A stretch of DNA of 42,541 bases from a virus. Lineage: Duplodnaviria; Heunggongvirae; Uroviricota; Caudoviricetes. Numbering within the stretch: the stretch's first letter is position 1; the number at the start of each line of letters is the position of its first letter. The notes beneath the pieces were generated by a model, which was not told where the DNA came from, made no database searches, and saw nothing but the letters and a program-made list of their open reading frames with translations. The stretch lies in IMG/VR virus record IMGVR_UViG_2529293215_000009; one strand, given 5' to 3'. The translations under genes and the position numbers were made by a program. Shown piece after piece: positions 6,007-36,523 of the stretch.

Positions 6007-6228
6007 ATGGCGGTATTTTATATTCCTGATATTTACGGACGCTTTTACCTGGTTAATTTCGATAACGTGAAGGTGATTTCACTGGCCGAAAATAAAGAAT
6101 GTGGCGATTTACTTTTTGAATTTAATGACCGCACACGAATGGTGATATCTGCCGGACTTGATCGCGAAGGTGCGACAGAAGTTTACAGCGGAATATGCCG
6201 TTCTGTTGGTGCGAAACAAGTCAGCTAA
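6007..6228 (+). CDS. hypothetical protein (accessory early region)
   Basis: ORF 6001..6228; ATG at 6007 just after B stop; no recognisable motif. Confidence 0.4.
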   Translation: MAVFYIPDIYGRFYLVNFDNVKVISLAENKECGDLLFEFNDRTRMVISAGLDREGATEVYSGICRSVGAKQVS

Positions 6229-9064: not shown

Positions 9065-9579
9065 TGTTCTTTAAAACATCAAACCCTTCCGCGCTGGCTG
9101 CGTGGCAAAAATACCAGCAGGACTACAAGAAAGTTAAGGATGAGGCAAAACGTCTTGAGGCCGTGCTGAATGTTGATTGTCGGTCGGTATTTGTATCCGG
9201 TATCAATGGTTTTTATTTTAAAGGACTGCGTTTTACGGATAACAAATATCCTTTTCATCGCGACTTATGGCGAAAACCGACTGCGTCGAATGGCTGGAGC
9301 TGCACGCCGCGCACATCGTGTATTCCCAAAGCCCTGTGCGCTGCCTCTGACGAACTTAACAGTCTGTGGCGTGAATATTCGCCCGTCACGTATGCCAGAA
9401 CCGATGCCCTGTTGTTCTGGCTGGGTATTGATTTCTCGGCAATCCTGTTTGGCCCTGTGGAGTGGTTCTGCGTTGACGATGTGATTTACCTTCAGTGCGG
9501 CGTAAAACCCGCAAAACAGAAAATGACCGAAATTCTGTCTGATGAGTTTTATGCTGCTGAAAAGCGAGTCAGGGGGTGA
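9064..9579 (+). CDS. hypothetical protein (accessory early region)
   Basis: 171 aa; start overlaps upstream stop (TAATG). Confidence 0.4.
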   Translation: MFFKTSNPSALAAWQKYQQDYKKVKDEAKRLEAVLNVDCRSVFVSGINGFYFKGLRFTDNKYPFHRDLWRKPTASNGWSCTPRTSCIPKALCAASDELNSLWREYSPVTYARTDALLFWLGIDFSAILFGPVEWFCVDDVIYLQCGVKPAKQKMTEILSDEFYAAEKRVRG

Positions 9580-9582
9580 TGT

Positions 9583-10134
9583 ATGATGATTTTACAACCC
9601 ATGGGGCGAAAAGGCCGTGCACCCGCTCATGTCCGTGCGTGGACACCTGAAGAAGATGCACTGCTGATTGCGCTTTATCCATCCACCCCGGTTAAGGATA
9701 TTGCTGTCAGGGTAAAAAGAAGTTTCTGGGGTGTACATAACCGGATTGTTTTATTACGCGGTACTTACCCGGAGTTGCTCAAATGCAAACGTCCAAGATT
9801 TAAACATGATGAAGATAAATTTATCCGAAAAAATGCCAGAACGATGACCGGTAAGCAAATAGGAGAATATCTGGGGCGAGACCGGGATTCTGTCCACAAA
9901 CGGGCGCGATATATTGGCGTAAGCATGAAAAAATACGGAGAGTTGCTGCCCTTCACCCGTATACCTGATGATGATGTTCATCTTATTCGTGAATTACGGG
10001 ATGCTGAATCACCACGACGTCTTACCTTCCGGGAAATAGGCGAGAAATTTGAATTATCCGAGAGTACGGTGAATTTTATTTATCACCATCGCCGGACTGC
10101 CGAAGATGTTGTATTACGGGAGTTAATGCCATGA
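9583..10134 (+). CDS. hypothetical protein with three HTH-like repeats
   Basis: Three internally repeated segments (WTPEEDALLIALYPSTPVKDIAVRV, DEDKFIRKNARTMTGKQIGEYLG, DDDVHLIRELRDAESPRRLTFREIGEKF). Confidence 0.45.
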   Translation: MMILQPMGRKGRAPAHVRAWTPEEDALLIALYPSTPVKDIAVRVKRSFWGVHNRIVLLRGTYPELLKCKRPRFKHDEDKFIRKNARTMTGKQIGEYLGRDRDSVHKRARYIGVSMKKYGELLPFTRIPDDDVHLIRELRDAESPRRLTFREIGEKFELSESTVNFIYHHRRTAEDVVLRELMP

Positions 10135-10456: not shown

Positions 10457-10807
10457 GTGAGAAGTTATATTGATAATGAAAAACTGAAGACAATCAGCGA
10501 CTGTCTTAGCTTGCTGGCAAAAATAAAAGAAACCATTGAAGAGATTAAATTTCAGCTTGAATACGAACCCTGTGGCGATGATACATGGCGTAACTCTGCC
10601 AGAAAAGCACTGGCTGTCTTTCAGAAACAACGCCGGACTGTTGAATACCGCCTTGCTGTATTGCGCCAGGAGGAAAAGGAAAGAAATATAAGACGTCATG
10701 AACTCGTTAATGATTTTCTTGTTCGTGAATTAAAGGAGCGTGTGCCGGAGTCGGTATTTTTTGAGTGTGAGGCTGTTGCCCGTAGCAAAGCACTGGAAAC
10801 TGATTAA
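10457..10807 (+). CDS. hypothetical protein (start uncertain)
   Basis: ORF 10415..10807; GTG at 10457 preceded by GGGAGGTGA; coiled-coil-like composition. Confidence 0.35.
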   Translation: MRSYIDNEKLKTISDCLSLLAKIKETIEEIKFQLEYEPCGDDTWRNSARKALAVFQKQRRTVEYRLAVLRQEEKERNIRRHELVNDFLVRELKERVPESVFFECEAVARSKALETD

Positions 10808-19834: not shown

Positions 19835-19955
19835 CGGTCAGTGGCGGGGGTTGAACCCGCATACATGATCCACCCGGAGGCAGGCACCGACTTTACCAGT
19901 TAAGCGTACACTGACCGCCTGTTTATTTTATATTCATCCTTTATGCGGAGGCAAT

Positions 19956-33991: not shown

Positions 33992-34902
33992 TGTTTCATG
34001 TTGATAATAATTCCGGCGTGGCGAATATGCCTGCGCTGGCACCGGCGCAGAGTAATACCACCACCTGGTTTACCGAAGGTGACGGACAAAAAGGTATCAG
34101 CTGGATTGGTCAGGACTGGCTGAATATTCTCCAGGCCGAACTGCTGAATATTCTGGCTGAAGCCAGTATTCAGCCGGATAAGGCGCAGTTAAACCAGCTT
34201 ACGCTGTCCATTAAAGCCATTATCGCTGCGAATGCCTTTTCCCGGAAAAACAACCTGAAAGAAATTGCTGATGCCGGTGCGGAAGCCCAGCGTCTTGCCC
34301 GTGGTTATCTTGGTCTTGGGGCGCTTGCCACAAAAAACAGTCTTGGTCCCGGTGACGTTAATGCTCTGGCGAAGGATCAGAACCTTGCCGACCTGGAGAA
34401 TGCGGGAACCGCCCGTAATAATCTGGATGTTTACAGCAAAAGCGAAGGTGATAACCGTTACCTGCGCAGGGAGCAGAACGGCGCAGACATTCCGGATAAA
34501 GGCGCTTTTATCGATAACGTCGGTTTACGGGAAACGGTAAATAAGGCTGCTGATGCCCTGCCATCGGGTGGAACCGCCGTGGCAGCAAACAGACTCGCCA
34601 CCCCAAGAAATATTAATGGCGTTCCTTTTGACGGAACGCAGGATATCAACATCACGTCAGGAATGACGCAGTCAACCGCAGATGGCCGGTATGTACAGAA
34701 TGTTCAGCTTGGAGCACAGAGCTATCATTCACCCGGAGGCAATGAAATATCATGGAATTACAGCGCACCTTCCGGTTGTATGCTTTCCGGTATTAACGTG
34801 CAGGAAACCGGCTCCCGGTCTGCGGACAATATCGGTGGGGTCTATTATCGCCCGGTTCAGATTTATATTAATAATGCCTGGAGAACGGTAAGTTCAGTGT
34901 AA
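33991..34902 (+). CDS. S: tail fibre protein S (constant part 33991..34520 fused to variable part Sv 34521..34902)
   Basis: 303 aa; gix-like site inside coding sequence at 34508..34533; C-terminal YYRPVQIYINNAWRTVSSV parallels the inverted cassette on the other strand. Confidence 0.8.
   Translation: MFHVDNNSGVANMPALAPAQSNTTTWFTEGDGQKGISWIGQDWLNILQAELLNILAEASIQPDKAQLNQLTLSIKAIIAANAFSRKNNLKEIADAGAEAQRLARGYLGLGALATKNSLGPGDVNALAKDQNLADLENAGTARNNLDVYSKSEGDNRYLRREQNGADIPDKGAFIDNVGLRETVNKAADALPSGGTAVAANRLATPRNINGVPFDGTQDINITSGMTQSTADGRYVQNVQLGAQSYHSPGGNEISWNYSAPSGCMLSGINVQETGSRSADNIGGVYYRPVQIYINNAWRTVSSV
34508..34533. promoter_or_regulatory. gix-like recombination site (left), inside S
   Basis: TTATCGATAACG TC GGTTTACGGGAA; resembles Gin/Hin site consensus TTATCCAAAACCTCGGTTTACAGGAA; core TCGGTTTACGGGA shared with right site in inverted orientation. 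Confidence 0.7.
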
Positions 34903-34936: not shown

Positions 34937-35458
34937 TTATTCCGGTTTTTCCGGCCAGGGAATCGCCTGGTAATGCCCCTCACTGGCAATATCATTAAAG
35001 TGCATTTCTTTAAGCTGTCGGATATACGCCATCCAGCGCGTCAGCTGTAATTTATTTTCATCGCTAATCATGTCCAGTTTTAATTCTGTTTTCCAGTCAT
35101 CCACGGTTTCGTTGGCTTCCTGGAGCAGCGATGAGCGACGCTTTTCAGCAACCGTCTTCCAGTTTACCGGCACCTTTGATATCAGGCCATCAGAACACTG
35201 CCAGTTACCGTCAATATTCACACCTTCCGGCAGTTCGTCCACTTCAACAACAGTAAAACCTGCCGGATATAAAGCAGAGACATCTTCAGCAACAGAGCAG
35301 ATAATACCCGTTACAGGCGAAATACAGAGTTTGTATTTCTTTGTGAAAAGCGGGATAGATTCATAAAAATCCCTTCCGTCCTCACTCTGGAAATACTGAA
35401 CATCCTCACCATAGGGTTTGTGTTCCGGGTAATATCGTTTTACGTTAATAAGCTCCAT
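34937..35458 (-). CDS. tail fibre assembly protein (Tfa, U-prime equivalent)
   Basis: ORF 34937..35569; ATG at 35458 preceded by AAGGTG; C-terminus WMAYIRQLKEMHFND...AIPWPEKPE resembles Tfa family. Confidence 0.7.
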   Translation of the reverse strand: MELINVKRYYPEHKPYGEDVQYFQSEDGRDFYESIPLFTKKYKLCISPVTGIICSVAEDVSALYPAGFTVVEVDELPEGVNIDGNWQCSDGLISKVPVNWKTVAEKRRSSLLQEANETVDDWKTELKLDMISDENKLQLTRWMAYIRQLKEMHFNDIASEGHYQAIPWPEKPE

Positions 35459-35537
35459 TATTTCACCTTGTTTTTGTTGAAAAGACAAAATCATCATATA
35501 TTTATTCAGATAATCTGTTTTTTGAACTACTGCACTT

Positions 35538-35896
35538 TTATGCGCTGGAAGCTGTTTTCCACGAACCATCTATCAGAAACTGAACAGGTCGATAATATGC
35601 GGTTACCGTTGCATTACCATCACCAGCGACATCAAGCCCTGTAAGTACGCATCCGTCAGGAACTTCAAAAATATTATATTGCATTCCAATCGTTGACCTT
35701 GAACCTCTTCGAATGCTTTGAACATAACGTGAGTCAGCCACAGACTGCGTCATCCCCGATGTAATATTTATATCCTGCGTTCCGTCAAATGGGACACCAT
35801 TAATATTTCTTGGAGTGGCGAGTTTATTCGCTGCAACAGCCGTTCCGTTCGATGGCAGGGCATTCGCGGCCCTGTTTACAGTATCCCGTAAACCGA
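35538..35896 (-). CDS. promoterless alternative tail-fibre C-terminal cassette (Sv-prime)
   Basis: Minus frame open from gixR to stop at 35538..35540; encodes NLGLRDTVNRAANALPSNGTAVAANKLATPRNINGVPFDGTQDINITSGMTQS..., parallel to Sv; no start codon. Confidence 0.7.
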
Positions 35897-35908
35897 GGTT
35901 TCAGGGAT
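35883..35908. promoter_or_regulatory. gix-like recombination site (right), adjacent to gin
   Basis: ATCCCGTAAACC GA GGTTTCAGGGAT, half-sites 10/12 palindromic; central GA complements the TC of the left site. Confidence 0.7.
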
Positions 35909-35962: not shown

Positions 35963-36523
35963 ATGCTGATTGGCTATATACGCGTATCAACAAATGACCA
36001 GAACACCGGTTTACAAAGAAATGCGCTGGAATGTGCAGGATGTGAGCAGATTTTTGAAGACAAAATGAGTGGTAAAACGACACAGCGGCCGGGACTGAAG
36101 CGGGCACTGAAGAAACTAAAACCCGGTGACACACTGATGGTCTGGAAACTGGACAGGCTGGGGCGCAGTATGCGCCACCTTGTTGCGCTGACAGATGAAT
36201 TACAGCAACAGGGGATAAATTTTCGTAGTCTTACTGACAACATTGATACGTCAACCCCCATGGGGCGCTTCTTTTTTCACATAATGGGTGCGCTGGCAGA
36301 AATGGAGCGTGAATTAATTGTCGAACGGACACGGGCTGGTCTTGCAGCTGCCCGTGAAAGGGGACGAACCGGCGGCAGACCCCGTCGTCTCACGCAGGAA
36401 CAATACGAGCAGGTCGGGCGTTTACTGGCCGGGGGTGTCAGTCGAAGACAGGTGGCACTTATTTTTGATATCGGCCTTTCAACCCTTTATCGTTATTATC
36501 CTGCGAGCGTTTCGGAAAAATAA
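35963..36523 (+). CDS. gin: serine DNA invertase (Gin/Hin/Pin family)
   Basis: 186 aa; N-terminal MLIGYIRVSTNDQ with catalytic Ser context, C-terminal HTH; immediately next to gix-like site. Confidence 0.92.
   Translation: MLIGYIRVSTNDQNTGLQRNALECAGCEQIFEDKMSGKTTQRPGLKRALKKLKPGDTLMVWKLDRLGRSMRHLVALTDELQQQGINFRSLTDNIDTSTPMGRFFFHIMGALAEMERELIVERTRAGLAAARERGRTGGRPRRLTQEQYEQVGRLLAGGVSRRQVALIFDIGLSTLYRYYPASVSEK

Follow-up and report, generated by a model that had tools for sequence, protein, structure and literature searches.

In its early region, a Mu-like prophage of Escherichia coli O157-type strains encodes a protein of 183 amino acids that is very probably a double-stranded DNA binder with three tandem helix-turn-helix (HTH) units and that belongs, as profile comparisons and structure prediction suggest, to the family of the D5 protein of phage T5 (PHROG 323). 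In its entirety, the explanation that we favor depicts a compact and basic D5 relative that is produced early in the lytic phase, would bind double-stranded DNA through three tandem HTHs, and would play an accessory role. We assign to it a probability of about 0.6, a value that weights the identity and the binding mode of the protein above its biological role. The protein is a compact, basic addition to the catalogued but little-studied D5-like family.

The window (the whole 42.5-kb stretch of DNA that was analysed) represents this Mu-like prophage, and the gene for the triple-HTH protein resides in its semi-essential early region. The sequence-only reading had positioned the open reading frame exactly, with an ATG start codon at 9583 and a TGA stop codon at 10132-10134 (Table 1). 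The upstream reading frame terminates at 9577-9579, and a Shine-Dalgarno-like AGGGGG is found 6 nt in front of the ATG. Since the upstream frame ends only at position 9579, and since the downstream gene is joined through an ATGA overlap, the triple-HTH gene is part of a densely packed, translationally coupled operon. Scans for promoter-like and terminator-like sequences, for tRNAs and for Rfam families revealed none that is associated with the triple-HTH gene. Its coding sequence is represented in RefSeq by WP_000973026.1, a "hypothetical protein". The net charge of the protein is strongly positive (pI 10.0; family range 9.2-10.3), and it contains a single cysteine residue (C68).

Table 1. Features of the triple-HTH gene and of its product; positions refer to the window.
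Feature	Position	Strand	Remarks
Complete ORF, T5 D5-like (PHROG 323) triple-HTH protein	9583..10134	+	183 aa; pI 10.0; predicted all-alpha
Shine-Dalgarno-like AGGGGG	9571..9576	+	6 nt 5' of ATG; overlaps end of upstream ORF; read from the sequence
N-terminal basic arm, aa 1-17	9583..9633	+	net charge +3; low pLDDT; G11 and H16 invariant (alignment A1)
Repeat 1 (R1), aa 18-60	9634..9762	+	predicted Myb-like three-helix HTH; W20 invariant; helix 3 = aa 48-59
Repeat 2 (R2), aa 71-113	9793..9921	+	predicted Myb-like three-helix HTH; most basic unit; helix 3 = aa 101-110
R2-R3 linker, aa 114-124	9922..9954	+	K117 and G119 invariant across the family
Repeat 3 (R3), aa 125-172	9955..10098	+	predicted diverged HTH; sub-threshold sigma-70 r4 and AsnC-type matches
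C-terminal helix, aa 173-183, acidic	10099..10131	+	AlphaFold2 model, charge count
ATGA stop/start overlap	10131..10134	+	start of downstream 103-aa ORF at 10131; translational coupling

The sequence-only reading had described the protein by eye as a series of three HTH-like repeats. Such repeats are not demonstrable from the single sequence, because Smith-Waterman scores for the pairs R1-R2, R1-R3 and R2-R3 failed to beat those of shuffled sequences (p=0.42, 0.32, and 0.066, respectively); the claim therefore rests on family profiles and on structure, both of which bear it out. A word-indexed search recovered 33 homologues, all of about 180 amino acids and originating from E. coli, Salmonella and Citrobacter, and an exhaustive profile search gave more. 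When the repeats were compared by hhalign with profiles of 28 sequences, R1 aligned with R2 at a score of 64.1 (98%, E 2.7e-14), R2 with R3 at 24.5 (59%, P 9.4e-5), and R1 with R3 at 17.0 (7%). With 36 more diverse sequences, the scores for the same three pairs rose to 72.7 (99%), 30.6 (92.7%), and 27.0 (86.6%); 60 column-shuffled controls per pair, derived from this larger alignment, had mean scores of 8-9 and reached at most 16.3, and the scores of reversed profiles were 6.5-9.3. The repeat segments, which had been estimated at about 45 residues, correspond to a domain of about 43-47 amino acids that recurs with a period of 54 residues, and the acidic start is indeed common to all three of them (PEEDALL, HDEDKFI, and DDDVHLI). 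A hidden Markov model of the R1/R2-type unit barely detects R3 (i-E 0.085-0.46). As judged from these profiles, R1 and R2 are close copies of each other and R3 is a diverged one.

Rather than a non-DNA-binding fold without internal repeats, the structure predicted by AlphaFold2 consists of three three-helix HTH bundles (helices 22-31/37-43/48-59, 75-84/90-97/101-110, and 129-140/149-156/160-169), which are followed by an extra C-terminal helix (173-181), and it contains no other fold. The model is wholly helical, without strands, and has a mean pLDDT of 84, with most 10-residue blocks within the bundles reaching about 90. Its pTM is 0.48, and the relative arrangement of the three bundles is therefore undefined. 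Taken with the profile homology among the repeats, the exclusively HTH-type neighbors described below and the homology to D5, the predicted bundles support the view, already put forward from the DNA sequence, that the protein is a triplicated HTH-type module that would bind DNA.

With a net charge of -2, R3 is slightly acidic; R1 (+3) and R2 (+7) are basic. In each unit, the third, putative recognition helix is the least conserved one (0.46, 0.37, and 0.37 in R1, R2, and R3, respectively), while scaffold positions are kept; this pattern would fit a diversified sequence preference. Helices 1 and 2 of R3 form the best-conserved part of the entire family (0.76-0.77), with a conserved face that comprises D129, D131, V132, L134, R136, L138, R139, F149, I152, E154 and K155, and R3 helix 3 is variable. 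At the DNA level, the segment for R3 helix 1 (DVHLIRELRD) includes one copy of a 28-nt direct repeat (79%; 9974-10001), whose other copy is located two genes downstream (10710-10737; DFLVRELKE); this two-copy repeat is probably due to chance.

What kind of HTH do these units represent? A scan of the 183-amino-acid protein against Pfam gave no model at its gathering score; the best scores, all of them sub-threshold, were those of an HTH_AsnC-type model (22.6 bits) and of Sigma70_r4 (19.4 bits) at R3 and of Myb at the start of R1. A Foldseek search of the PDB with the whole model was likewise non-significant, although the top matches were all multi-HTH DNA binders. The nearest structures and sequences are DNA-binding HTHs without exception, namely the DNA-binding domain (DBD) of GcrA, Myb R2R3, Cbp2, and HTHs of the Tc3/sigma type, and the repeat unit is accordingly predicted to be a tri-helical HTH of the Myb/SANT, GcrA-DBD or Cbp type.

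With the family profile, c-Myb R2R3 (1h88) is matched at E 2.7e-6 over residues 18-106 in such a way that R1 and R2 are in register with R2 and R3 of Myb; helix 1 opens with W-T-x-E-E-D in both proteins, and the profile of the isolated unit matches Myb3 at 1e-5. The triple-HTH protein thus shares with Myb/SANT proteins a predicted three-helix HTH fold in tandem and an R2R3-like register, and weak precomputed Myb matches are present on some of its homologues. However, the Myb models PF00249 (14.6 vs. 24.4 bits) and PF13921 (16.1 vs. 22.9 bits) stay below their thresholds and match residues 19-32 only. Furthermore, of the three spaced tryptophans of Myb only the first is kept (W20, with F73 as its R2 counterpart) while aliphatic residues occupy the other two positions, and the protein differs from Myb R2R3 by its third, diverged HTH and by its origin from a bacterial virus. 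Strict membership in the Myb family was rejected because of the sub-threshold Pfam scores and the missing tryptophans.

The best natural sequence match of a single unit in the PDB is HTH2 of Cbp2 (2lvs), which is aligned over its full length at E 7.6e-9, and Cbp1/Cbp2 also provided the top Foldseek match of the whole model, though a non-significant one (E 0.06). Like the triple-HTH protein, Cbp1 and Cbp2 are built from duplicated HTHs, two or three in number, that short linkers connect. Cbp1, with three such HTHs, binds as a monomer to one asymmetric repeat site in the 5' to 3' direction, and its HTH3 recruits Cren7 (PMC10883916). In contrast to the gene of an enterobacterial prophage studied here, Cbp1 and Cbp2 are encoded by the chromosomes of Crenarchaea and are specific for CRISPR repeats; neither a CRISPR array nor a repeated site is present in the 42.5-kb window. 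Structurally, the unit is matched best by the DBD of Caulobacter GcrA (5yiu), an N-terminal domain whose fold is present in the model. Residues R33, N34, I37 and G38 make up the m6A pocket of GcrA. The GcrA DBD reads m6A, and the C-terminal, sigma-70-interacting CCCH zinc domain of GcrA has the pattern C-X14-C-X9-C-X2-H (PMC5887438). This zinc domain is absent from the triple-HTH protein with its one cysteine, GcrA possesses one DNA-binding unit as compared with three here, and the unit profile matches the GcrA DBD only marginally (E 0.09). Full membership in the GcrA family was rejected on the grounds of the absent sigma-70-binding domain.

The relationship to D5 emerges at the level of the whole protein. 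Among the PHROG families, it matches phrog_323 ("transcriptional regulator, D5-like") at 6.3e-58; this family, which is filed under transcription regulation, also contains D5 of T5 itself (1.2e-71) and the P2-type homologues (2.8e-33 and 1.9e-36). When the family was aligned with T5 D5 by hhalign (96.6%, E 6.7e-10), residues 18-171 proved collinear with D5 residues 72-232 over three units, and a unit model trained without D5 located three units in D5, at 73-101, 141-174, and 208-233. The entire protein is, on this profile evidence, a remote and collinear homologue of T5 D5; the identity of the two proteins is too low for a connection by tblastn. D5 (T5.118, YP_006946.1) has 255 amino acids and carries an additional N-terminal region of about 70 residues that is absent from the 183-amino-acid protein, which aligns to positions 80-256 only of the 319 positions in the PHROG profile. 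In addition, D5 is near-neutral (pI 6.3) whereas the triple-HTH family is strongly basic. Given the remoteness of the relationship, the N-terminal extension and the different isoelectric points (6.3 vs. 10.0), the binding mode and the role of the two proteins may differ.

D5 binds double-stranded DNA cooperatively and abundantly. The GenBank record of T5 describes it as a DNA-binding protein on which replication and late transcription depend and which has a part in the shut-off of earlier expression. According to PMC12630848, which cites McCorquodale 1979, DNA binding by D5 was demonstrated experimentally. The D5 gene is positioned between the ligase gene and those for the DnaB-like helicase, primase and polymerase; it is an early gene that adjoins replication genes, as is the triple-HTH gene in P2-like prophages. 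D5 mutants of T5, a virulent phage, accomplish neither replication nor late transcription; the triple-HTH gene, by contrast, is accessory in temperate Mu-like and P2-like phages. A "phage-encoded DNA-binding protein" of T5 mentioned in the DRT4 paper was dropped from consideration, as it is ORF55 and unrelated to D5.

Of 5,426 complete E. coli genomes, 216 contain the coding sequence of the triple-HTH protein and 233 the MuA gene of its prophage lineage; the triple-HTH gene is therefore a near-constant component of that lineage. In the window, it is preceded by the genes for transposase A and B, gam and a Gp11-like gene, and followed by those for GemA and Mor. A Mu-like prophage of Salmonella carries it in the same slot, with Gp11-like and Gp12-like genes before it and GemA and Mor after it, and a similar slot is occupied in all 45 Mu-type IMG/VR loci. 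Beyond the Mu-type loci, P2/186-like prophages and Citrobacter phage Shae_phiSM encode full-length homologues with 31-48% identity. In these carriers, the gene precedes replication gene A by 0-1.9 kb and often overlaps the start of gene A; an early lytic operon is the setting of the homologues throughout. At E<=1e-3, tblastn found no homologue in phage records named Mu, P2 or 186, and the gene thus appears to be accessory to, or dispensable for, the replication and transcription programmes of these phages. A mechanism specific for replication is made less likely by the unrelated routes, transposition and rolling circle, through which the carriers replicate.

Several other features of the window deserve mention. 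A lambdoid prophage of the Stx type carries the Mu-like prophage within its tail tape-measure gene (positions 1-1700 and about 38900-39800 of the window); this flanking coding sequence is an incomplete pseudogene in RefSeq, and GenBank records of Stx phages label the region 'inserted Bacteriophage Mu-like phage'. An inverted repeat of 182 nt (79%; 34516-34697 and 35719-35900) flanks about 1 kb with a tail-fibre-assembly reading frame (34937-35569, minus strand) and adjoins a resolvase/invertase gene (35963-36523, plus strand; Resolvase and HTH_7 domains). This arrangement is an invertible host-range switch of the Mu G-segment/Gin type. Between the invertase gene and mom, a reading frame for 679 amino acids (36623-38662, plus strand) with SASA (sialate/carbohydrate O-acetylesterase) and DUF6645 domains has the look of a cargo gene whose product may be a tail-spike-like enzyme or one that modifies surface glycans. 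A gene for a Mom-family adenine-modification protein is located near the right end (40044-40781, plus strand; 4e-77), so that the prophage reaches at least to about 40.8 kb of the window. RefSeq lists a 'tRNA-OTHER' at about 19836-19915 (minus strand) between head-morphogenesis and virion-morphogenesis genes; ARAGORN and Rfam detected no RNA gene anywhere in the window, including this site. An intergenic 29-nt sequence beside it (19924-19952) recurs as a direct repeat at 6014-6042, and an inverted match of 36 nt (78%) pairs the extreme left prophage end (1739-1774) with a site just 3' of the B gene (6047-6082); the latter may be a transposase-binding-site-like sequence or a chance match.

How might the triple-HTH protein work? 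In the mechanism that we propose, three HTH domains generated by internal duplication and joined by short conserved linkers would bind double-stranded DNA as a monomer, like beads on a string. Successive major grooves would each accommodate the third helix of one unit such that about 20-30 bp are covered, and the basic N-terminal arm, presumably a flexible DNA-contacting element, would supply backbone or minor-groove contacts together with the linkers. The conserved outer face of R3, made up of helices 1 and 2, would be left free and may serve as a binding face for a protein partner, in analogy to the recruitment of Cren7 by HTH3 of Cbp1. As an accessory factor, the protein could participate in replication and/or in the switch from early to late transcription during lytic development, as T5 D5 does, but we place low confidence in this step. 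The biological role is the weakest element of our explanation: D5-like support of replication or late transcription, a tentative assignment made by analogy, stands ahead of a function as a specific transcription factor, and this in turn ahead of a link to DNA methylation.

The transcription-factor reading, which takes up a suggestion of the sequence-only reading and which we consider possible but somewhat doubtful, holds that each recognition helix contacts a few bases within a single asymmetric site at particular promoters of phage or host and that the protein thereby represses or activates transcription early in the lytic phase. The low conservation of the third helices on a kept scaffold is the pattern that diversifying specificity would produce, the closest analogues (Myb R2R3, Cbp1/2 and GcrA) bind DNA sequence-specifically, and PHROG 323 is categorized under transcription regulation. 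However, the window offers no repeated or conserved candidate site, since a search of its 42.5 kb for a repeated DNA target found only short, low-copy families that are probably due to chance; moreover, a promoter-like site near the gene is absent, and the carriers are unrelated phage types with different promoters.

A function tied to N6-adenine methylation is an unlikely proposal. The D5-like proteins of temperate enterobacterial phages would either resemble GcrA or SeqA and be three-domain readers of Dam-methylated or hemimethylated sites on replicating phage DNA, or they would be regulators of the phage Dam enzyme or partners that direct it to DNA. This idea draws on the m6A-reading GcrA DBD as the best structural match of the unit (PMC5887438) and on the gene neighborhood in P2-type prophages. 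In 9 of the 10 independent P2-type lineages with a D5-like gene (clustered at 80%), a Dam-type methyltransferase gene is located 0.5-1.7 kb away, as compared with Dam nearby in 17 of 80 species-level gpA loci that lack the D5-like gene (Fisher p=3.6e-5, with more distant P2-like phages as the background). Among IMG/VR loci independently sampled through gpA, two had both genes, none had the D5-like gene alone, 23 had Dam alone, and 43 had neither; Dam was thus nearby at both loci with the D5-like gene and at 23 of the 66 loci without it. The combined data, in which the D5-like gene is represented by loci L003-L008, L011, L012, L136-L157, L159, and L197, amount to 10 of 11 lineages versus 40 of 146 background loci (p=4.5e-5, a statistic that ignores phylogeny). 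The order of the D5-like and Dam genes differs in lineage L012, and the identities of the two genes are uncorrelated (Spearman 0.19), so the arrangement is not simply one frozen cassette.

Several observations speak against a role in methylation. None of the 45 Mu-type loci has a Dam gene within 7 kb, the unit resembles the GcrA DBD only marginally in sequence, and the sigma-70-binding zinc domain is missing. The D5-like and dam genes occupy one accessory slot upstream of gene A, which may be a common insertion hotspot, and the Dam statistics, as stated above, disregard phylogeny and draw their backgrounds from more distant phages. Matches in mycobacteriophage "DNA methylases" were rejected as support for this link. 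In Mycobacterium phage Bombitas (L238, 2004-3887), the gene for a C5-cytosine methylase is split into gp109, which comprises the N-terminal half of the methylase and about 295 extra residues with a two-unit Myb-like module, and gp110, which contains the C-terminal end. The split looks like a mobile insertion of the homing-endonuclease type, and the apparent fusion is a module within an element that interrupts the methylase gene and not a targeting domain. We regard the linkage to Dam in P2-type prophages as a lead and not as a finding. If the proposal held true, D5-like proteins would tie the replication state to gene expression, and the presence of the P2-type gene almost only beside a phage dam gene, directly upstream of gene A, would be explained.

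The HTH unit is widespread. A profile search returned 14,174 cluster representatives at E<=1e-3, and a structure search of BFVD returned 18 significant phage proteins, most of them unnamed and a few labeled "AsnC family", "Endonuclease" or "Transcriptional regulator"; a "Myb-like" protein and a "D5 protein" of a Vibrio phage (E 2.6e-3) were just under the cut-off. The unit resides within HNH endonucleases (phrog_1891, mycobacteriophage matches by tblastn, and the 'Endonuclease' of BFVD), and the metagenomic proteins P0035, P0036, P0039, P0044, P0078, and P0133, all uncharacterised, contain 4-11 tandem units of about 45 residues with the consensus WTxEEDxFLxxNYxxMTxxEIAxxLGRSxxSV; in P0035, the array is fused to a DEAD/ResIII helicase. 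The combination of helicase and Myb-like array in P0035 is echoed by the 'replication origin binding' protein T5.108 (L009, 9546-12332), which is annotated with SANT/Myb and helicase domains and which the unit model does not match.

The occurrence of a two-unit module in HNH endonucleases and in the methylase-splitting element, and the helicase fusion, could suggest that the 183-amino-acid protein is the DNA-binding part of a homing endonuclease or of another enzyme, left stranded and now functionless. This is highly improbable in view of the preservation of full-length proteins of about 180 residues with invariant positions at 31-40% identity in E. coli, Salmonella, Citrobacter and two phage types, of the fixed, translationally coupled position in early operons, of the near-fixation of the gene in its prophage lineage, and of the homologue D5, which is a functional free-standing protein. 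Least credible of all is an AsnC/Lrp-family regulator, the identity implied by the name 'AsnC family protein' on most database records, for which the sub-threshold HTH_AsnC-type match at residues 131-163 (E 9.2e-5) could be cited; this match covers a generic HTH only and falls short of the Pfam cut-off of 27 bits, the protein has three HTH units and groups with T5 D5 instead, and the family was rejected because no C-terminal RAM/AsnC_trans_reg alpha-beta domain is present (no Pfam match and an all-helical AlphaFold2 model), which makes the label on most database copies a misnomer.

Our favored reading, a D5-like triple-HTH protein, corrects a widespread misannotation: a cluster of over 1,500 near-identical sequences, found on over 1,000 contigs, bears the names "AsnC family protein" or "hypothetical". 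For specialists in phage biology this outcome will be unsurprising, as it comprises solid knowledge at the level of annotation and one modest comparative-genomic observation, the Dam linkage, which provides a cheaply testable hypothesis. D5 of T5, a genetically important but structurally undescribed protein, is now tied to three duplicated HTH units of a predicted Myb/Cbp-like type. In pathogenic E. coli and in Salmonella, the genes for compact D5-like proteins are accessory early components of Mu-like and P2-like prophages, and the proteins, if their role resembles that of D5, would possibly be dispensable modulators of the switch from replication to late transcription.
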